In this document: positions 1,638 through 60,100 of the stretch, one piece after another
Layout: every line of letters starts with the position of its first letter
Numbering within the stretch: the stretch's first letter is position 1
Origin: an uncultured Clostridia bacterium
Lineage (GTDB): Bacteria; Bacillota; Clostridia; Christensenellales; CAG-917
Direction: 5' to 3'
Assembly (NCBI GenBank): GCA_934254835.1
Contig: CAKQMI010000003.1
Coordinates: 14,240 to 78,239, forward strand
DNA length: 64,000 nt
Notes under the pieces: generated by a model
What the model was told of the DNA's origin: nothing
What the model saw: only the letters and a program-made list of their open reading frames with translations
The model's database searches: none
Made by a program: the position numbers and the translations under genes

Positions 1638-4763
<3,126 letters not shown>

Positions 4764-16182: not shown

Positions 16183-16258
16183 GGACGTTTAACTCAGCTG
16201 GTAGAGTGTCTTCTTGACGTGGAGAAAGTCAGCGGTTCGAGTCCGTTAACGTCCACCA
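16183..16258 (+). tRNA. tRNA-Val (anticodon GAC), CCA encoded
   Basis: The hand-folded cloverleaf has acceptor GGACGTT/AACGTCC, D arm ACTC-AGCTGGTA-GAGT, anticodon arm TCTTC-TTGACGT-GGAGA, T arm AGCGG-TTCGAGT-CCGTT, discriminator A and CCA. Total 76 nt. Confidence 0.93.
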
Positions 16259-16292
16259 AAATAACGCAATCAAACGGTTGCGTTATTTTTTT
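16259..16292 (+). terminator. rho-independent terminator after tRNA-Val
   Basis: ATAACGCAA-tcaaacgg-TTGCGTTAT followed by TTTTTT. Confidence 0.7.
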
Positions 16293-16296
16293 GTAC

Positions 16297-16306
16297 GCTA
16301 ACGTCC
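16297..16306 (+). repeat. partial copy of the tRNA-Val 3' acceptor (GCTAACGTCC)
   Basis: 9/10 match to GTTAACGTCC of the tRNA, direct orientation. Short, so weak on its own. Confidence 0.3.
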
Positions 16307-16384
16307 TCTGCGCAAATACATTTGCGCGGGCTACGCCACGTCACACACTTCGCTTTAAAAATCGCATTATTTCTTTTAATAATG

Positions 16385-16440
16385 CTCACTCTTGCGCTCG
16401 TGTGCTCCTCTTCCCCAAAAGTACAAAAGTATCTTTTGGG
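16385..16440 (-). repeat. inverted partial copy of the 105-bp unit head
   Basis: The reverse complement CCCAAAAGATACTTTTGTACTTTTGGGGAAGAGGAGCACACGAGCGCAAGAGTGAG aligns with 17013-17068 (CCCAAAAGATACTTTTGTACTTTTGGGGAAAAGGAGTATGCGAGCGTAAGACAATC). Confidence 0.6.
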
Positions 16441-16456
16441 AGCCCCATTATTACGC

Positions 16457-16629
16457 GCTGACCGCAAGCAAAGAGAGGAGCAAGCGCTTGCATTTGCGAA
16501 AATCGAGCGTAGCGGACATAGACAACGATTGCACGAATTTTTCGTGCAAAATGCAAGGCATTGTTGCTTTCAACAAATCGTTGTCATAGACGCTTCACTA
16601 TGCAAGTAAACTTGCTCGTTCCGCTATTA
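16457..16629 (+). ncRNA. candidate structured RNA/DNA core, copy 1 (second copy 50845-51017 minus)
   Basis: About 173 nt align with the reverse complement of 50845-51017. There is a three-hairpin junction (16523-16583) and a further hairpin (16602-16615), and the stems are kept by compensatory changes between the copies. No ORF. Confidence 0.45.
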
Positions 16630-16631
16630 AA

Positions 16632-16641
16632 CGAGTCCGTT
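16632..16641 (+). repeat. partial copy of the tRNA-Val T-arm/acceptor (CGAGTCCGTT)
   Basis: 10/10 identity to tRNA positions 16237-16246, directly after the 173-nt core. Confidence 0.4.
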
Positions 16642-16775
16642 CCAAGGGGCAGAGAACACCGAAATCTTGATTTCGGTGTTCGGCGGTTGCTTGCAAACGC
16701 TTACGTTGTGTAGCGTGTATGAAATGGTAGATAGTTTGTAGCATTTCGAAAAGCATAAATGGTACGCCCAACGCA

Positions 16776-16809
16776 GAGTAGCCCCGTTAACGTCACGCCC
16801 GTTAACGTC
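16776..16809 (+). repeat. two adjacent partial copies of the tRNA-Val 3' end
   Basis: GAGTAGCCCCGTTAACGTC and CCCGTTAACGTC compared with tRNA GAGTCCGTTAACGTCC. Confidence 0.5.
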
Positions 16810-16883
16810 GCTTTTTGTCCTCGGCAATTCTCTTTACAGCAACGAATTACTCTCTTATGTCATTGCGAGGAGGATATCGGTGT

Positions 16884-17003
16884 CTCCAAAAGATACTGAC
16901 TAATGGGCCCCGCGGGATACTGTGTACCCGTGGGGAAAAGGAGTATGCGAGCGTAAGACAACCGACTGTCGCTTGCGACAATCGGTTGGTCAAAAACGAA
17001 GCA
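16884..17003 (+). repeat. tandem repeat unit a (period about 105 bp)
   Basis: CTCCAAAAGATACT ... GGGGAAAAGGAGTATGCGAGCGTAAGACAACCGACTGTCGCTTGCGACAATCGGTTGGTCAAAAACGAAGCA. Confidence 0.7.
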
Positions 17004-17011
17004 ATCGGGGC

Positions 17012-17108
17012 CCCCAAAAGATACTTTTGTACTTTTGGGGAAAAGGAGTATGCGAGCGTAAGACAATCGACTGTCGCTTGCGACACTCGATTGGTCAAAA
17101 ACGAAGCA
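17012..17108 (+). repeat. tandem repeat unit b
   Basis: CCCCAAAAGATACT ... GGGGAAAAGGAGTATGCGAGCGTAAGACAATCGACTGTCGCTTGCGACACTCGATTGGTCAAAAACGAAGCA. The 72-nt body is near-identical to unit a. Confidence 0.7.
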
Positions 17109-17116
17109 TACGACGT

Positions 17117-17136
17117 GAGTAGCCCCGCTAACGTCC
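17117..17136 (+). repeat. partial copy of the tRNA-Val 3' end
   Basis: GAGTAGCCCCGCTAACGTCC compared with tRNA GAGTCCGTTAACGTCC, direct orientation. Confidence 0.5.
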
Positions 17137-17405
17137 TTCTATGCGCTCTTTTGCTTGTGTCAGTTAATACACCGTATCGTATCGGCTCATCGTTTCACAA
17201 GGTGTCCCTTCCGGGAGATTGCCACAACACCGCAAGGCGGTGTTTCGCAATGACGTATTGAGGGCGTTCCTCAGAATGACAGAAGCGAGTGCACCACGCA
17301 ACTCTTAAAATGGCGTATGCTCGCTATTCATTATTTTACCTTGTAAAAACAATACTTTAACACCTTGTTTTGTCAATTGAATATACTTTTCTCGTTTTTT
17401 GTTTT

Positions 17406-17819
17406 TCACAAAAAACGGCGCAATTCTTTGACATTGGCGTCATAAAGTTTGATGAGTTCGCCGGCAAACGGGGTATCCTCGTGACTATAAAGGTGCGACG
17501 TTTTGACAACGTCGTTAATGCCCATATTGTTGCCCTCGATAAGCATTTCGGCGATGTTGGTCGTGGACTTGTCAAGCCCCGATTTCATCTTTACGCCCAT
17601 TTTCATCATTGCCCTTTCCATCTTGTTGGGGTACGTTCCTTCGACCGCTGACGGCGTATCTCCAAGCTCTTTCGAAGCCCTTTCGGACAAATCCAAAATC
17701 TTTGTTTTTTGTTTCCACAAAGTTTCGCGCAGTTTAGTATCTTTGACGTTTTCCCAAATGTTATCGATGGCGTCCACGCCGACGTTGCAGTTTTTGATGA
17801 CTTCTTTCAATAAATTCAT
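17406..17819 (-). CDS. hypothetical helical protein (possible four-helix-bundle/ferritin-like fold)
   Basis: Start placed at MNLLKEVIKNCNVGVDAIDNI, with GGAGG 5 nt upstream. The N-terminal 31 aa of the track ORF overlap pntB. No family recognised with confidence. Confidence 0.5.
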   Translation of the reverse strand: MNLLKEVIKNCNVGVDAIDNIWENVKDTKLRETLWKQKTKILDLSERASKELGDTPSAVEGTYPNKMERAMMKMGVKMKSGLDKSTTNIAEMLIEGNNMGINDVVKTSHLYSHEDTPFAGELIKLYDANVKELRRFL

Positions 17820-17904
17820 ATTTGCCTCCATATCGGAGTTTGTGCAAAGCGCAAAAAAATATGCCACCGCATTACACGGTGGCAAATTTTCATTGTTTTT
17901 TGAT

Positions 17905-20900
17905 TTACGCATTCATATCGGAAATGAACTTTTGGAGCGTTTCCTGAGCGTTGCCAAGGTACAGATACACGCCGTTTTCGCGAGTGTACAAGGGGTTGTC
18001 AACGCCTGCGTAGCCGGGTTTCAAGTCGTAGTTGAAGATGAAGATATTCTTGCAATCCGCGACGTCCAAAACGGGCATTCCATAAATAGGCGTGCCTTCC
18101 GCGGTGTTTGCGGCGGGGTTCAGAACGTCGTTTGCGCCGATGACGATCGACGCGTCAGCCGTCTTGAACTCGGGGTTGATATCGTCCATTTCGTACAAAT
18201 CTTCGTAGTCAACGTCGGCTTCACACAGCAATACGTTCATGTGCCCGGGCATACGTCCCGCAACGGGGTGAATTGCGTATTTGACCTTGGTGCCGTTTGC
18301 GACGAGTTTGTCGGCGAGTTGCTTTACAAGGTGTTGAGCCTGCGCGATTGCCATACCGTAACCGGGGACGATAATCACGTTTTTGGCGTCCAGCAGAAGT
18401 TTGGCGGGGTTTTCGACCTTTTTGGGTGCGTCTTCCGTCTTTTCCGCAGTTGCCTCGACGGCAGGTTCAGCCGTATCGGCTTTTTCAAGCGCGACTTCGG
18501 CGGGTTTATCCATATCGGCGATGAATTTTTGCAAGGTGTCTTGAGCGTTGCCGAGATACAGATGGACGCCGTTTTCACGCGTATAGATGGGGTTGTCAAC
18601 GCCCGCGTAGCCGGGTTTCAAGTCGTAGTTGAAGATGAAGATATTCTTGCAATCTGCAACGTCCAAAACGGGCATTCCGTAGATAGGCGTACCTTCCGCG
18701 GTGTTTGCGGCGGGGTTCAGAACATCGTTTGCGCCGATGACGATTGTGGCGTCTGCCGTCTTAAACTCGGGGTTGATATTGTCCATTTCGTACAAATCTT
18801 CGTAGTCAACGTCGGCTTCGCACAACAATACGTTCATGTGTCCGGGCATACGTCCCGCAACGGGGTGAATTGCGTATTTGACTTTCGTTCCGCCTGCGGT
18901 AAGTTTGTCGGCAAGTTGCTTTACAAGGTGTTGCGCCTGCGCGATTGCCATGCCGTAGCCGGGGACGATGATGACTTCTTTCGCACCGTTGAGGCTTGAC
19001 GCGTAGTTGGTCTCAGTTTTCACTTCGACGGGTTTGACTTCGGCGGTTTCAGCCTTGACTTCGGTGGTCGTTTCGACGGGTTTATCCATATCGGCGATGA
19101 ATTTTTGCAAAGTTTCTTGAGCGTTGCCGAGATACAGATGTACGCCCTCTTCACGGGTGTAAATGGGGTTGTTGACGCCGGCGTAACCGGGCTTCAAGTC
19201 GTAGTTGAAGATGAAGATATTCTTGCAATCCGCGACGTCCAAAACGGGCATTCCGTAGATAGGCGTGCCTTCCGCGGTGTTTGCGGCGGGGTTCAGAACG
19301 TCGTTTGCGCCGATGACGATTGTGGCGTCAGCCGTCTTGAATTCGGGGTTAATGTTGTCCATTTCAAACAAATCCTCGTATTCGACGTTGGCTTCGCACA
19401 GCAATACGTTCATGTGTCCGGGCATACGTCCCGCGACGGGGTGGATTGCATATTTGACCTTGGTGCCGTTTGCGACGAGTTTGTCGGCAAGTTGCTTTAC
19501 AAGGTGTTGAGCCTGCGCGATTGCCATGCCGTAGCCGGGGACGATGATGACTTCTTTTGCACCGTTGAGGGTTGCGGCGTAGTTAATTTCGGTTTTCACG
19601 ACGGGTTTTTCGGCTTTGACTTCTTCTTTTGCGACAGCGGGTTTATCCGCTCTGACTTCCGCAGGAGCGGGAGCGGGGGCGGGTTTCGAGTCGCCGGACG
19701 TACCGCCAAGAAGGATTGCGCCGAGTTTTCTGTTCATTGCTTTGCACATAATTTGCGTCAAAAGGAGTCCCGACGCGCCGACGATACCACCGACGGCAAC
19801 CAGCAATAAGTCGTTGATTGCAAGACCGGCGATTGCGCCCGCGACGCCCGAAAGGCTGTTGAGCAAAGAAATGGTGATGGGCATATCCGCGCCACCGACA
19901 CGAATTGCGAAGATAAATCCGAAGAAGCCCGAGATAACAAGCAACAACGCAATCATGATACCGCAAAACGCTTTGATATCCATGCCGAGCACGATTTTGC
20001 CACTGCCCGCAAGAGCCGCAACCGTCGCGAACACGACGATAAGCGCGAGCGTCAACATAAGACTGCCGACGGTCATAGCCTGATGTCCCTTATAGACAAC
20101 GGGTTTTTGCGGGAGAATTTTGTGAAGTTTGCCTGCCGCGACAAGGCTTCCGATGAGGGTGATCATACCGACTGCAAGCGCAAGAGACGACGTCGTCGTG
20201 GAGAATCCGTCAAAGCCCGTGCCTACGCCGAGCATAGCGAACGCGCCGACGATTGCCGATGCCGCACCGCCCAAACCGTTGAGCAACGCAACCATCTGAG
20301 GCATTTGAATCATCTTGACTTTCTTTGCAAGGACGATACCCGCAACCGTGCCGAGTGCGAGACCGATATAGAGCGTCCAGACAGTCGCGATGTGATTTGT
20401 GCCGTTGCCGTAAACGATAATGAGGATTATTGCAAGGAGCATGCAAATCGCGCTGAAACGGTTGCCGATTTTGCTGTAAACGACCTTGCCCATCATAGCG
20501 ATGCCCAAAAGCACGCCAAGCGACAGTACGATTGCCATTGCAAGGTAGATCCAGTCACGAACAGAAGCGCCCGAGCCTGCGCCCGCCGATTTTGCGATGA
20601 CGTCCATACAGCAAATAACCGCAAGAAGCCCCGCGCCGACGATTGCCGATGCGACGTAAATTGCGGTTTGTCCCTTTGCTTTTTTCTTTGCGATCATGCC
20701 GAGCATACGGTCGGTGACCATAAATCCGCCGACGACGTTGACCATTGCAAGAGCGATTGCAAGCGAACCGAAGATCGCCGAAAGCACGACGCCCGCCGTC
20801 CCGAGATTGAACAGCGATGCGCTTGCCGACAATGCGCCAAGCACCGTCACGCCCGACAATGCGTTCATACCCGACATAAGCGGAGTATGCAAAAGCGTGG

Positions 20901-21045
20901 GAACGTTGGAAATAAGTTTGTAACCGACGAGCGTCGCAACAACGAATACGCCAAGAAGAATCAATTGGAAATAAATTGCCTTCTCAAGACCGAAGTTGCC
21001 CATTGCAAGAGCGCCCGTCATAACAGAGTTTAACGTTGATAACAT
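17905..21045 (-). CDS. pntB: NAD(P) transhydrogenase, fused alpha-2 (PntAB) + beta (PntB) subunit with three tandem dIII domains
   Basis: 1046 aa. The N-terminal about 125 aa are alpha-2-like TM helices (...GGFMVTDRMLGM). Next comes PntB dII (GGADMPITISLLNSLSG, IMCKAMNR). Then dIII occurs three times, each with VIIVPGYGMAIAQAQH, HPVAGRMPGHMNVLLCEA and GANDVLNPAA. Confidence 0.93.
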   Translation of the reverse strand: MLSTLNSVMTGALAMGNFGLEKAIYFQLILLGVFVVATLVGYKLISNVPTLLHTPLMSGMNALSGVTVLGALSASASLFNLGTAGVVLSAIFGSLAIALAMVNVVGGFMVTDRMLGMIAKKKAKGQTAIYVASAIVGAGLLAVICCMDVIAKSAGAGSGASVRDWIYLAMAIVLSLGVLLGIAMMGKVVYSKIGNRFSAICMLLAIILIIVYGNGTNHIATVWTLYIGLALGTVAGIVLAKKVKMIQMPQMVALLNGLGGAASAIVGAFAMLGVGTGFDGFSTTTSSLALAVGMITLIGSLVAAGKLHKILPQKPVVYKGHQAMTVGSLMLTLALIVVFATVAALAGSGKIVLGMDIKAFCGIMIALLLVISGFFGFIFAIRVGGADMPITISLLNSLSGVAGAIAGLAINDLLLVAVGGIVGASGLLLTQIMCKAMNRKLGAILLGGTSGDSKPAPAPAPAEVRADKPAVAKEEVKAEKPVVKTEINYAATLNGAKEVIIVPGYGMAIAQAQHLVKQLADKLVANGTKVKYAIHPVAGRMPGHMNVLLCEANVEYEDLFEMDNINPEFKTADATIVIGANDVLNPAANTAEGTPIYGMPVLDVADCKNIFIFNYDLKPGYAGVNNPIYTREEGVHLYLGNAQETLQKFIADMDKPVETTTEVKAETAEVKPVEVKTETNYASSLNGAKEVIIVPGYGMAIAQAQHLVKQLADKLTAGGTKVKYAIHPVAGRMPGHMNVLLCEADVDYEDLYEMDNINPEFKTADATIVIGANDVLNPAANTAEGTPIYGMPVLDVADCKNIFIFNYDLKPGYAGVDNPIYTRENGVHLYLGNAQDTLQKFIADMDKPAEVALEKADTAEPAVEATAEKTEDAPKKVENPAKLLLDAKNVIIVPGYGMAIAQAQHLVKQLADKLVANGTKVKYAIHPVAGRMPGHMNVLLCEADVDYEDLYEMDDINPEFKTADASIVIGANDVLNPAANTAEGTPIYGMPVLDVADCKNIFIFNYDLKPGYAGVDNPLYTRENGVYLYLGNAQETLQKFISDMNA
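17908..18405 (-). repeat. dIII-coding repeat 3 (aa 881-1046)
   Basis: AKLLLDAKNVIIVPGYG...QKFISDMNA. Confidence 0.9.
18511..19002 (-). repeat. dIII-coding repeat 2 (aa 682-845)
   Basis: ASSLNGAKEVIIVPGYG...QKFIADM. Followed by the 35-aa linker DKPAEVALEKADTAEPAVEATAEKTEDAPKKVENP. Confidence 0.9.
19087..19578 (-). repeat. dIII-coding repeat 1 (aa 490-653)
   Basis: AATLNGAKEVIIVPGYG...QKFIADM. Followed by the 28-aa linker DKPVETTTEVKAETAEVKPVEVKTETNY. Confidence 0.9.
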
Positions 21046-21071
21046 ATTAAAGACCTGCCTTAATCATTATT

Positions 21072-21103
21072 AAAAATACCCCCTGCCCGCAAGCAGGCAG
21101 GGG
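21072..21103 (-). terminator. terminator-like GC hairpin + U-run inside the pnt operon, about 25 nt upstream of the pntB ATG
   Basis: Minus strand reads CCCCTGCC-tgcttgcg-GGCAGGGG followed by GTATTTTTAATAATG. Confidence 0.5.
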
Positions 21104-21407
21104 ATTGCCTTTTATTGATAAAATTTTACGAAAAATGGTTTTTCGTCACCGTTTAGCCATTGAACTATGTATGTTCTCGGCAAAACGGCAAGATTTGGAT
21201 GAGATTTTGACGTTTCTTGTGGCGTTCTGAAAATCCTCAATAACAGATTTCAGCATCGCGTTAATGTCAAAATTTACATTCATTAAGCGACGAGATTTAG
21301 ATGAAGTTCTGACGTTTCTTTTAATGTTCCGAGTTTTCCAGTGTACTACCACGTACACGAAAACTCGGGTTCTTAAAAAAACTCAGAAATTCGCTAAATG
21401 TCGGCGA

Positions 21408-28156: not shown

Positions 28157-28888
28157 TCACTTCCTGTTTTCTATATTATTTATTAAAAAGTCTATTCCCC
28201 TTTTTAAGTCGTTGTAAGTTGCGTCAAAATCCCCCGTGTAGTACGGATCGGCAACGTCGCGCGTTTCGCCCGAAAACTCCAAAAACTTTTTTACCTTGTT
28301 CCCTTTATCGGGCGCGAAAAGCCTTTTCAGATATGCGACGTTTTGGTCGTCCATGCCAACCGTGAATAATACAAACTGTTAGAAATCGCCGATATTTCCG
28401 TGCTTTTCGGCAATTACTCACTTGTAGTACAAAAAGTACAACTGCGTTCGTCTTTTCCAAAAATCATCGAAACTCTCGACGGTTTGGTCTAAGGAGTATT
28501 GCCCCCGCGTTTTTAGACGAAAACAAGGCACGCGAGCGGGTTAATACTGTATGTATAAGCCGTGAGCGCAACGAAGTTTTAGTCAAAAACACGGAGCAAG
28601 ACCATAGTTCGTATTATTCACGGTTGGCATACCAAGAAACAAATCGTACTTTTCATAGTCGGATTTTTTGACGGGCTTTGAATAATGCGGATAAGTCGAG
28701 ACGCCATGCTCGTGCAGTTTTTCAAGGGCTTTCGGATAAGTCGGATTACCCTCTTCAAAGGAGCAAGTCGCCGAGGAATCGATTGTATATTTGCCACTCA
28801 ATCCCCTTTTTTGCAAGGCGTCGTTCATCATAAATTCCGCCATTGCGCTTCGACAAATATTCCCAAGACATACAAACATTATTTTCAT
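28157..28888 (-). pseudogene. low-molecular-weight protein-tyrosine phosphatase split by a 274-bp insertion
   Basis: The N-terminal part is MKIMFVCLGNICRSAMAEF...KYDLFLGM (28888 to about 28629). The C-terminal part is (M)DDQNVAYLKRLF...DVADPYYTGDFDATYNDL (28354-28157). Removing 28355-28628 plus one AT restores LFLGMDDQNV. Confidence 0.85.
28355..28628 (+). mobile_element. non-autonomous TIR element (MITE-like), copy A
   Basis: Ends are GCCAACCGTGAATAATAC...GTATTATTCACGGTTGGC (18 nt perfect, 22/23), with AT on both flanks. No ORF. About 90 percent identical by eye to copy B at 59668-59940. Confidence 0.8.
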
Positions 28889-36292: not shown

Positions 36293-36438
36293 AAATATAC
36301 AATATGTTGCAAGCGATAATTACGGCGATACCGCACAAAATTGTACGAATGTAAAAATAATATGAATTGCCTTTTTACATTCCAAATTGTAAAAATAACC
36401 CGATTGATTATTCTTTATGACAGCCGTAAATAATGCAA

Positions 36439-36576
36439 GATTAGGTCACGCGACACTATTTTCGATGATTTTTGAAAAAGGCGAGCGCAGTTGTACTTTT
36501 TGTACCACAAGCGAGCATTTTTTGAAAAGCGCGGAAAGAGTGGCGTTTGGACAAGATTGCATTGTTTTCGGTTGGC
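36439..36576 (-). mobile_element. diverged, 5'-truncated copy (D) of the TIR element, inverted orientation
   Basis: ...TTCGATGATTTTTGAAAAAGGCGAGCGCAGTTGTACTTTTTGTACCACAAGCGAG...TTTTCGGTTGGC followed by AT. It aligns with the reverse complement of the left half of copies A and B. Confidence 0.55.
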
Positions 36577-50695: not shown

Positions 50696-50726
50696 TTTTT
50701 ATATAATCCTCAAATTATCTTGATAT

Positions 50727-50799
50727 GCCAACCGTGAATAATACGAACTGTGCCAAAACGCCGATATTTCCGTGCTTTTTGGCACAGTTCGTATTATTC
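50727..50799 (+). mobile_element. internally deleted mini-copy (C) of the TIR element
   Basis: AT+GCCAACCGTGAATAATACGAACTGTGCCAAAACGCCGATATTTCCGTGCTTTTTGGCACAGTTCGTATTATTC. The left end is intact and the right TIR is truncated. It forms a 22-bp perfect hairpin. Confidence 0.6.
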
Positions 50800-50804
50800 C
50801 TGTC

Positions 50805-50826
50805 TGGTATGGAGATGCGGGGTTTG
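50805..50826 (-). repeat. partial duplicate of the tmRNA 3' end (att-like)
   Basis: Minus strand reads CAAACCCCGCATCTCCATACCA, compared with the tmRNA 3' end CAAATCCCCGCATCTCCACCA (51150-51130). Direct orientation. Confidence 0.6.
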
Positions 50827-50844
50827 TAGCAAGCAAAGTTTGCG

Positions 50845-51017
50845 TAATAGCGGAGCGGGCGAATTTATTCACTAAAGCGGAGCGTCTACGCTCAACGATT
50901 TGTTGCGAGCAACAATGCTTCGCATTCGTGTGATAAATCACACAATCGTTGGCTATGTCCGCTACGCTCGATTTTCGCAAATGCAAGCGCTTGCTTCTCT
51001 CTTCGCTTGCGGTCAGC
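50845..51017 (-). ncRNA. candidate structured RNA/DNA core, copy 2
   Basis: The reverse complement aligns over about 173 nt with 16457-16629. It has the same hairpin architecture with compensatory substitutions and lies 112 nt downstream of tmRNA on the same strand. Confidence 0.45.
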
Positions 51018-51090
51018 CCGGGTACCGGGGTTCACGTTGCAAAGCAACGGCACGGCTTTTGCCGTGCAAAATCCCCGCTTTAGCGACATA

Positions 51091-51120
51091 GAAAAATAAG
51101 TTGAACAGGAGTTCAACTTG
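51091..51120 (-). terminator. rho-independent terminator after ssrA
   Basis: AAGTTGAAC-tcc-GTTCAACTT followed by ATTTTTC on the minus strand. Confidence 0.7.
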
Positions 51121-51129
51121 TTTCTCGTT

Positions 51130-51496
51130 TGGTGGAGATGCGGGGATTTGAACCCCGGTTCGTCCTTCTACGTCCGATACCTTCTACATGCTTATTCGGT
51201 GATTAGTTTCTCTTACCGTCGTTCGCCGACAGACGGCGGTTTTGAAGAGACGGAGAATGCCGATTTACCTACCGTCGTGAGTAAACCCGTAGCCCGTTCA
51301 GTATGACGCCGATTGCTTACGGAACAGGAACGTAAGGTCGACGTGCCACAATAATTAAGCGGCGAATGCGAACGCAGGAGCGTTCACTTTTTCGTTATTT
51401 TTTGCGTTTAATTTTAATTTTCCGTCTTTAACGCAGTCGGACCTGCGACATGCTTCTTATCGCCCATACAAAAACGTCGAATCCAAAAACATCCCC
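51130..51496 (-). ncRNA. ssrA: tmRNA (SsrA)
   Basis: 5' end GGGGATGTTTTTGGATTCGACG and 3' end GGACGAACCGGGGTTCAAATCCCCGCATCTCCACCA form the tRNA-like domain. The tag reading frame at 51405-51355, GCA AAA AAT AAC GAA AAA GTG AAC GCT CCT GCG TTC GCA TTC GCC GCT TAA, gives AKNNEKVNAPAFAFAA*. smpB is nearby. Confidence 0.93.
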
Positions 51497-59644: not shown

Positions 59645-59667
59645 AGTTCTATTTTATCCTGTTTTAT

Positions 59668-59940
59668 GCCAACCGTCAATAATACGAACTTTGCCAAACC
59701 GCCGATATTTCCGTGCTTTTTTGCAAAAACTCGCTTGTAGTACAAAAAGTACAACTGCGTTCGTTTTTCCCAAAAATCATCGAAACTCTCGGTGGTTTGG
59801 TCTAAGGAGTATTGCCCCGCGTTTTTAGGCGAAAACAAGGCACGCGAGCGGGTTAATACTTTTTGTCTAAGCCGTGAGCGTAACGAGGTTTTGGTCAAAA
59901 ACGCGGGGCAAGACCATAGTTTGTATTACTCACGGTTGGC
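59668..59940 (+). mobile_element. non-autonomous TIR element (MITE-like), copy B
   Basis: GCCAACCGTCAATAATACGAAC...GTTTGTATTACTCACGGTTGGC with AT on both flanks. Collinear with copy A. Intergenic, between the MGMT-like gene and ilvB. Confidence 0.8.
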
Positions 59941-60100
59941 ATGAATAATATCAATACAAAATTAAATCTAAATAATTGACTACAGCGGATAATATCAACA
60001 CAAAATTCAAATTGAAATTATTGACTATATATGATAATTATAATACAATAATTAAAAATATATAATTGCGCGAGGCTTCGGCTTTGACGGCGGGTTACTT

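Follow-up and report, generated by a model that had tools for sequence, protein, structure and literature searches.

A probable array of miniature, protein-less insertion elements behind a tRNA-Val gene of an uncultured Clostridia bacterium and its relatives at other tRNA and tmRNA genes

Introduction

The window analyzed here, a stretch of 64,000 nucleotides from an uncultured Clostridia bacterium (contig CAKQMI010000003.1 of the assembly GCA_934254835.1, positions 14,240 to 78,239), contains a tRNA-Val gene that is followed by a gene-free tract (16259-17405). What does this tract consist of, and how did it come to lie behind a tRNA gene? An earlier note, made from the sequence alone, had regarded it as a series of att-type direct repeats of the tRNA 3' end left by serial insertion and decay, possibly of small, non-autonomous cis-mobilisable (CIME-type) remnants. 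According to our analysis, the tract is probably an array that grew by accretion at the 3' part of tRNA-Val from miniature insertion elements, which are protein-less and site-specific. The att-type repeats, the serial insertion and the decay are supported by matches that are not due to chance and by whole-block differences at orthologous loci. Judged from their sequences, the elements form a coherent, retargeted family of miniature non-autonomous elements that use the same junction at at least five tRNA and transfer-messenger RNA (tmRNA) genes, and do not look like products of random decay. The remnant reading was thus correct as to small size and lack of autonomy, but elements with the same junction at at least five targets are more than remnants.

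Results

The tRNA-Val(GAC) gene (16183-16258, + strand) was recognized as intact by ARAGORN and Rfam, and its sequence is identical in the relatives L006, L056 and L057. Its last 21 nt (nt 56-76; 16238-16258, + strand; CGAGTCCGTTAACGTCCACCA) form the proximal copy of the direct repeat described below. The next credible gene encodes a DUF2383-like protein; this open reading frame (ORF) lies on the minus strand and ends at 17406. The two longest ORFs of the tract, of 148 aa (16815-17261) and 95 aa (16322-16609), had no match in Pfam, and a protein-coding or pseudogene content of the tract was therefore rejected. Contigs of four gut-metagenome samples in ENA match the region at 99.96-100% over the parts they hold, and in the three of them that span the whole tract (L001-L003) no gene is called between the C_GCAxxG and the DUF2383-like genes. 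Pfam and the ENA gene calls thus bear out the absence of a credible gene that had been noted before.

All five fragments resembling the tRNA 3' end were found again where they had been described (16297-16306, 16632-16641, 16776-16794, 16798-16809 and 17117-17136), all on the + strand in direct orientation with the tRNA. The exact words that the tract shares with tRNA-Val, likewise on the + strand, are CCGTTAACGTC at 16784 and 16799, CGAGTCCGTT at 16632, and TAACGTCC at 16299 and 17129. Their frequency was compared with that in 1000 dinucleotide-preserving shuffles of the tract. The tract contains 13 8-mers from the last 25 nt of tRNA-Val (0.42 expected) and five 10-mers (0.027 expected), and none of the 1000 shuffles reached either number; elsewhere in the window, 8-mers of tRNA-Val type occur at about 0.2 per kb. 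Chance, which the earlier note had named as the explanation to be excluded, is therefore not the source of these matches. The five fragments are not independent, as one variant (GAGTAGCCCCGYTAACGTC) is present twice, at 16776 and at 17117, and the fragment at 16798 is a local 15-nt tandem duplicate of 16784.

To see how the locus varies, we compared it with its relatives. L006 (CP091734.1) is the complete 1.53-Mb chromosome of a metagenome-assembled genome, 'Clostridiales bacterium', in which the syntenic locus was located by a protein-anchored scan; its DNA is ~84% identical to that of the window. The tract between the shared flanks measures ~460 nt in L006 and ~1000 nt in the window. In L006, L056 and L026 the right arm of the element (...CCGCTATTAAA) is followed by the full 21-nt CGAGTCCGTTAACGTCCACCA and then by a second, different terminator, whereas at that spot the window has just CGAGTCCGTT. 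The 10-nt stub of the window is thus explained by the loss of 61 nt (61 nt in L006), comprising the rest of the repeat and the second terminator. The element is shorter in L006, L056 and L057; this form, A', lacks 126-129 nt of the core, GCTGAC being joined directly to GCTCC; the same junction is present in L043, L059 and L060. In L057, whose flanking C_GCAxxG protein is 74% identical, a decayed A' unit is still present. The tract is accordingly not invariant among orthologues: L006, L056, L026 and L057 differ from the window by whole blocks, and several block boundaries coincide with tRNA-like fragments, in line with what had been predicted for an array.

A scan for the core pattern identified 26 loci in human-gut metagenomes and one viral contig, from which 30 flanks were extracted (the 26 metagenome loci, two views of the viral contig and the two copies of the window). 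In 15 of these 30 flanks ARAGORN found a tRNA gene upstream of the core on the same strand, namely Ser(TGA), Ser(GCT), Arg(CCG) or Val(GAC). Over the 26 loci and the window, the targets of the core are tRNA-Val, tRNA-Ser(TGA), tRNA-Ser(GCT), tRNA-Arg(CCG) and tmRNA, with the core downstream of and co-oriented with the target gene. A direct repeat of at least 16 nt of the locus's own tRNA 3' end, always starting with C56, was present downstream in 14 of the 15 tRNA-linked loci; it is a perfect 21-nt copy (nt 56-76) in 8 loci and 18 or 16 nt long in 6. The exceptions are L029, which has no repeat, and the window with its 10-nt stub. Where the core is directly followed by the repeat, this is a perfect 21-nt copy in L028, L044 and L032, whereas most Ser(GCT) cores have a copy of 18 or 16 nt. 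The target genes stay intact, tRNA-Val as well as tRNA-Ser and tRNA-Arg ahead of the units.

A unit of this family spans from position 55/56 of the tRNA, in the T-loop, to the copy of nt 56-76 that lies downstream. Following the regenerated 3' end of the tRNA, it contains, in this order, an intrinsic terminator, a segment matched to the T-arm, and a conserved right arm ending ...CGCTATTAAA; every right end stops with a C immediately ahead of the repeat. The two ends (the terminator and ...CGCTATTAAA) are not inverted repeats of each other, unlike the terminal inverted repeats that characterize miniature inverted-repeat transposable elements (MITEs). Three kinds of unit were distinguished: A' (~170 nt), type B (~193 nt), which has a different interior and the same junction as A, and type A (~280-320 nt), which consists of A' and a nested structured module. 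No ORF was found within the units. All copies with readable surroundings sit in arrays at tRNA or tmRNA genes, and the repeat is 21 nt long. Whole units also account for differences between loci with near-identical flanks at tRNA-Ser(GCT): L033 equals L046 plus one exact 193-nt B unit including the 21-nt repeat, and L043 has an additional 171-nt A' unit, the addition being at the tRNA-proximal end. In the 64-kb window the covariance model of the core detects just two copies. A known RNA family was considered and rejected, since only tRNA and tmRNA reached the Rfam gathering score and nothing credible appeared at permissive E-values (up to 5 for the tract and up to 1 for an array of A and B units).

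The terminator next to tRNA-Ser(GCT) differs according to the type of the adjacent unit, and the same terminator is found on units at two different Ser tRNAs. We conclude that the terminator travels with the unit. After it follows the reverse complement of the T-arm region of the unit's own tRNA. For the Ser, Arg and tmRNA targets this segment is the reverse complement of nt 45-70, at times with hairpins splitting it at position 56; among A units, the longer ones have one or two hairpins between its halves, at the point that matches position 56. The segments of B units are ACAGGGATTTGAAC at Ser(GCT) and AGAGGGATTCGAAC at Ser(TGA), and these differ precisely where the two tRNAs differ. In A units they are GAAACAGGGATTT ... 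GAACCCCGGCT at Ser(GCT), GGAAGAGGAATT ... GAACCCCC at Ser(TGA), GGGGGGGGCGAACCCT at Arg and GCGGGGATTT ... GAACCCCGGT at tmRNA. When all segments were compared with all tRNAs in a cross-matrix, the cognate tRNA was favoured for B, A-Arg, A-Ser(TGA) and A-Ser(GCT). In the minimum-free-energy folds predicted for the whole Ser(TGA), Ser(GCT), Arg and tmRNA units, the structure is closed by a helix between the segment and the distal repeat.

With this unit as a guide, the tract of the window can be read from the tRNA outward. Positions 16238-16641 are one nearly intact A unit of 404 nt, enlarged by a nested copy of a ~105-nt unit, U105; the order is regenerated tRNA end, terminator, matched segment, hairpins, inverted U105, core and truncated repeat. 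Terminator T1 (16259-16294, + strand) seems to have been supplied by the element and not to be the original tRNA terminator; it had been recognized before, with an end at 16292, and runs to about 16294. The specificity module of this first unit (16295-16337, + strand) consists of ACGCTAACGTCCTCTG, which is the first of the five tRNA-like fragments, the hairpin GCGCAAAT-ACA-TTTGCGC, and GGGCTACGCC. L006, L056 and L057 have a homologous module, after which comes GAACCGCT, i.e., tRNA-Val nt 49-56 in reverse complement; at other tRNAs, this place is taken by the T-arm of the tRNA concerned, likewise in reverse complement. Fragment 16297-16306 is the internal target-matched segment of the first element and not a scar. 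The inverted U105 (16338-16450, - strand) is absent at this place from L006, L056 and L057, and 57 nt of it (16390-16446) are 89% identical to 17007-17063. The type-A structured core (16458-16631, + strand; covariance model R1, 150.7 bits, E 9e-38) includes the ~129-nt module (16463-16591, + strand) that is missing from A'. The truncated distal repeat (16632-16641, + strand) is CGAGTCCGTT, corresponding to tRNA nt 56-65, with AACGTCCACCA and the second terminator deleted.

Beyond the first unit lies a perfect 13-bp hairpin, which had been described with slightly different limits; it spans 16654-16681 and has a loop of 2 nt. It is kept in relatives with compensatory changes and is distal there to the second terminator, past which the whole sequence 16654-16775 sits in these relatives. 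An older, decayed copy of the repeat follows (16776-16809, + strand): GAGTAGCCCCGTTAACGTC, with a 4-nt insertion relative to the tRNA, and then the 15-nt tandem duplicate with CCGTTAACGTC. L006 keeps the homologous GAGCAGCCCCGTTAACGTC with a truncated second A unit next to it. Two tandem U105 units occupy 16905-17006 and 17007-17116 (+ strand), with compensatory changes in the first hairpin (CGCGGG/CCCGTG vs CAAAAG/CTTTTG); the 105-nt tandem aligns at 91% identity (16916-17003 vs 17020-17108). The second copy of the variant repeat, GAGTAGCCCCGCTAACGTCC (17117-17136, + strand), pairs with 16776-16794 to bracket a 322-nt block. Probably, 16776-16809 and 17117-17136 are relics of at least one older unit. 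Of the fragments that had been taken for integration scars, those at 16776 and 17117 are indeed decayed repeat copies that share the 4-nt insertion, but 16297-16306 and 16798-16809 are not scars. Recurrence of the tract's modules elsewhere had been reported too, and we found it for the U105 tandem, for the core (16454-16629 aligns to 51020-50845, behind the tmRNA gene, at 82% identity over the 174-nt core) and for the short blocks that also occur in a 274-bp element with terminal inverted repeats. At 17335-17405, the conserved 3' flank of the DUF2383-like gene, synteny with L006 resumes (BLAST, window 17335-21218 vs L006 8656-4767).

The tract also contains a copy of another short repeat family at 17195-17254 (- strand; GTCATTGCGA ... 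GGCAATCTCCCGGAAGGG), which is also found at window 16859 and in many copies upstream of the core in L026 (3700-4500). Further on, at 17905-21045 (- strand), the window encodes a transhydrogenase subunit PntB with three tandem C-terminal nucleotide-binding domains; the corresponding 300-nt repeats start at 17899, 18496 and 19072, and the version in L057 has 853 aa.

The second core of the window belongs to the tmRNA gene (51130-51496, minus strand) and has the same orientation relative to it as the first core to tRNA-Val. This sister type-A unit (50810-51150, covariance model 171.2 bits) lies entirely on the - strand. From the gene outward, it comprises tmRNA nt 56-76 (51130-51150), a terminator (51090-51129), GCGGGGATTTTG (51067-51078), two hairpins (51035-51066), GAACCCCGGT (51024-51033), the core (50843-51016) and the distal repeat CAAACCCCGCATCTCCA (50810-50826), a 17-nt copy of tmRNA nt 56-72 with one base deleted. 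Since the tmRNA bears its own complete type-A unit, both tRNA-like genes of the window are occupied. In the relatives L061 (~3800-4060) and L063 (~3830-4050), whose MetA is 78-79% identical, the tmRNA has no A core; neither at the tmRNA of L061 and L063 nor at tRNA-Val of L057 did we find a clean empty site. The ~185 nt inserted at this place in L061 are unrelated and contain no gene; a copy of tmRNA nt 56-71, 16 nt long and with 1 mismatch, delimits them.

The 274-bp element is present in the window in two full copies and one partial copy (28352-28630, 59665-59942, 36416-36554, 50718-50810). A solo hairpin of its ends directly abuts the tmRNA distal repeat, and its interior has AAGGAGTAT...GAGCGTAA...GGTCAAAAACG in common with U105.

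The structure of the core was drawn by hand as nine helices and realigned with the covariance model, so that the alignment is fitted to the structure and favours the result. With this proviso, 92% of the cells in the helices are paired and 28 of the 45 pairs are changed on both sides, a covariation reached by none of 500 shuffles and to be set against 22-52% in slid controls. Both strands of the core fold about equally well, and no convincing conserved sigma-70 promoter site was seen ahead of the core. CTGAC precedes the central 126-129 nt and ...AGAC closes them, in the A' backbone (L026, type A, compared with L006, type A') and also in a B-like backbone (L034, L035, L038, L039). Because this part is bounded alike in two backbones, the core resembles a nested passenger module. 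In this arrangement the module (window 16463-16591) resembles a palindromic element derived from IS200/IS605 insertion sequences (IS). The U105 family, in whose hairpins compensatory changes are found, is likewise nested in the A units of L024, L035, L049 and L050 and occurs also in L026.

Two kinds of recombinase gene were encountered near arrays. In L028 (2738-3380), beyond the array at tRNA-Ser(TGA), lies a gene fragment for the N-terminal part of a tyrosine recombinase, of which the intact relatives (L052-L055) belong to Type I restriction-modification (R-M) shufflons with multiple hsdS genes. The viral contigs L025 (1-4500), L059 and L060 contain a prophage-like element with two large serine recombinases, whose end ...GTTGGGYAACCGCA lies directly against a B-type terminator; this contact is found in arrays at two different Ser tRNAs, and the end region seems to contain a further tRNA 3' end, ATCCCGCGGTGTACCA. 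The serine recombinases were rejected as movers of the units and are treated as part of a separate prophage that uses or neighbours the array, because they do not explain the 21-nt repeat.

Other arrays adjoin R-M-like and defence-like genes (L050 960-4400, L049 430-1390, L030 6760-11130); the restriction-enzyme-like ORF and the DNA methylase of L050 and the large helicase of L030 were called by sequence appearance. At the L050 junction just the last 8 nt of the tRNA end are left. In L029 (3900-5390), what comes after tRNA-Ser(TGA) and a B/A hybrid unit is the DUF2383/PntB flank known from behind tRNA-Val in the window; either shared cores have mediated a rearrangement here, or the assembly is chimeric. 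Several contigs (L004, L005, L058, L062) end inside tRNA-Val, a U105 unit or tmRNA; short-read assemblies break because of these repeats.

Discussion

From these data we infer that recombination takes place site-specifically in the T-loop and that its enzyme acts in trans. A unit would enter as a circle or a single strand whose junction carries tRNA nt 56-76, and recombination in the T-loop would keep the tRNA intact and displace the old 3' end downstream. New units would go in beside the tRNA, so that older ones would shift outward and decay. The favoured candidate for the enzyme would be a tyrosine integrase of the T-loop ('T-stem region') class. Regeneration of the tRNA gene with displacement of its 3' fragment is an established principle of integration, and the 'T-stem region' class of sites is common (1836 of 3919 islands) (PMC4383910). 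Since the inverted segment can pair with the repeat, the predicted folds suggest a recognition step that involves a folded single strand or is guide-like.

Several points weigh against this account. The distal repeat of the window itself is only 10 nt long, and its Val segment can be read as direct or as inverted owing to the palindrome ACGTTAACGT of acceptor and T-stem. Neither the window nor the fetched flanks yielded a recombinase of any kind, which extends the absence of an integrase that the earlier note had recorded for the tract; the integrase-like fragment of L028 (Phage_int_SAM_3) was rejected as a helper, as its relatives lie in Type I R-M hsdS shufflons. The junction of right arm and repeat is without the inverted core-type site that a tyrosine recombinase normally needs. 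Wobble pairs in the core are evenly distributed (30 G-U vs 29 A-C) and do not indicate which strand folds, so that folding of the tRNA-sense strand, considered on the basis of a wobble asymmetry, was dropped. No empty tRNA-Val site was recovered among the fetched relatives, L057 included, and the decayed A' unit of L057 indicates that the insertion at tRNA-Val may be old. Gain and loss of units could come from recombination between 21-nt repeats or shared modules. Finally, the comparison sequences are all metagenome assemblies, whose contigs frequently break in these repeats.

How would a unit find its cognate gene? Possibly, though we regard this as doubtful, the interrupted reverse complement of the T-arm, with its two short segments on either side of the crossover at 55/56, acts as folded single-stranded DNA or as RNA and steers the trans-acting recombinase to the cognate tRNA. 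A change of a few bases in this guide and in the carried 3' end would then move the element to a new tRNA, and the unit would amount to a programmable insertion cassette of natural origin that contains no protein gene and has passenger modules nested in it.

That the units move as single-stranded DNA in an IS200/IS605-type pathway (HUH transposase TnpA), like palindrome-associated elements, and insert 3' of GTTC, the universal word of the T-loop, seems unlikely to us. In this case their left end, from cleavage site to first hairpin, would have come by evolution to copy the tRNA 3' end, with additional pairing to the target strand through the inverted segment. Such a pathway would be in accordance with the subterminal position of the hairpins (at the left end the terminator, at the right end GTGAGTAAACTCAC or the hairpin of B) in the absence of terminal inverted repeats, with the CTGAC ahead of the nested core module and the ...AGAC at its end in two backbones, and with the C in which all right ends finish before the repeat. 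A conserved flank word similar to the element's own 3' end is the pattern of the IS200/IS605 family. However, GTTC is ubiquitous, yet the units were found just at cognate tRNA and tmRNA genes, and the wobble asymmetry expected of a structure formed by the top strand is absent. No TnpA gene was seen, with a transposase not looked for genome-wide, and we know of no IS200/IS605 member that carries and duplicates 21 nt of its target.

It is also improbable that nothing in these arrays is mobile now, i.e., that they are fused arms of large integrative elements after internal deletion (CIME-type) and owe their similarity to homologous recombination and gene conversion. Large cargo does occur at these tRNA loci (the R-M-like or defence-like genes of L050, L049 and L030 and the serine-recombinase prophage of L025, L059 and L060), the B/A hybrid units and the L029 join show that modules recombine with each other, and the tRNA-Val unit is old, being present in a relative with a 74%-identical flanking protein. 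Yet the same internal join of specificity module, backbone and right arm is found at five target genes, which independent deletions would not repeat. Moreover, near-identical strains differ by exact units, and none of the 26 metagenome loci or three viral contigs revealed a larger parent with these arms.

Very unlikely, finally, is a true target-site duplication of 21 nt by an integrase that cuts with a fixed 21-bp stagger from the T-loop, as in the duplication of CRISPR-leader repeats or the insertion of casposons next to tRNA genes, with any tRNA usable and the repeat ending at CCA: the constant length and register (nt 56-76) at four tRNAs, and at tmRNA with a one-base deletion, the tRNA-proximal addition of new units and the 4-nt-insertion variant found twice (16776, 17117) around the 322-nt block, which is easier to understand if the target itself is duplicated, would agree with it, but it leaves the internal target-matched segments unexplained, neither a Cas1-like gene nor another candidate was seen, a segmental duplication could account for the variant pair, and the classical identity-block model itself predicts a 21-nt block from T-loop to CCA (PMC4383910).

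If the tract is an array of miniature insertion elements, as we consider probable, tRNA integration sites can host elements two orders of magnitude smaller than the usually catalogued islands. Such units would explain long gene-free spacers, and at least some contig breaks, beside tRNA and tmRNA genes in the small genomes of gut Clostridia. One backbone appears to have been retargeted to five tRNA and tmRNA genes by small matched changes across the crossover, which makes the encoding of target choice testable. The arrays appear to drive rearrangements between tRNA loci, and they adjoin defence islands and a serine-recombinase prophage.

No prior description of the family was found in the literature searched, of which the coverage was partial, so its newness is not proven. 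At least one standard program for island detection would not report it: Islander drops candidates of less than 2 kb or without an integrase (PMC4383910), and the units, being both, would escape it.

Among known systems, the units can first be compared with the islands and prophages that tyrosine integrases insert at 'T-stem region' sites of tRNA and tmRNA genes. Both insert into the 3' part, restore the gene and leave the displaced fragment as a far direct repeat; islands, too, target tmRNA and form tandem arrays, and a block of 21 nt that reaches from T-loop to CCA is in keeping with this class. In contrast to islands, the units are 170-320 nt long, gene-free and devoid of an integrase, one family serves at least five targets, and the units hold an internal inverted copy of the T-arm.

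CIMEs are defined as decayed integrative and conjugative or integrative and mobilizable elements that keep their att sites and have lost their genes (PMC5704250). The units share with them the retained attL/attR-type repeats, the absence of genes for integration and transfer, and the tandem position at a tRNA 3' end, but no parent element is known for the units. Known CIMEs are kilobases long. As the same tiny architecture recurs at five targets, it would be the small form itself that spreads.

A further likeness is to the integrative mobile elements exploiting Xer (IMEX) at dif, such as CTX phage, RS1 and TLC, and to the attC cassettes of integrons. These are also small tandem units at one regenerated site, with recombinases that are possibly not self-encoded, and their site is an imperfect palindrome that can fold as a single strand; the corresponding layout here would be repeat, terminator and inverted copy, with predicted folding. 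Unlike in these systems, the target is a tRNA T-loop and not dif or attI. No intI or attI was seen in the window, and only the palindrome-like layout resembles attC.

Specific insertion into multicopy small RNA genes, those for tRNA among them, is known from the Dada DNA transposons of fish (PMC8869645). They differ from the units in being eukaryotic, in encoding a transposase and in having different ends.

In the IS110 elements with their bridge RNA, as in the units, a structured non-coding part stands by two hairpin-separated, target-matching segments that flank the crossover. Here, in contrast, neither a DEDD recombinase gene nor any ORF is present in or beside the units, the segments are one interrupted reverse complement and not a loop with paired guides, and a 21-nt repeat is formed.

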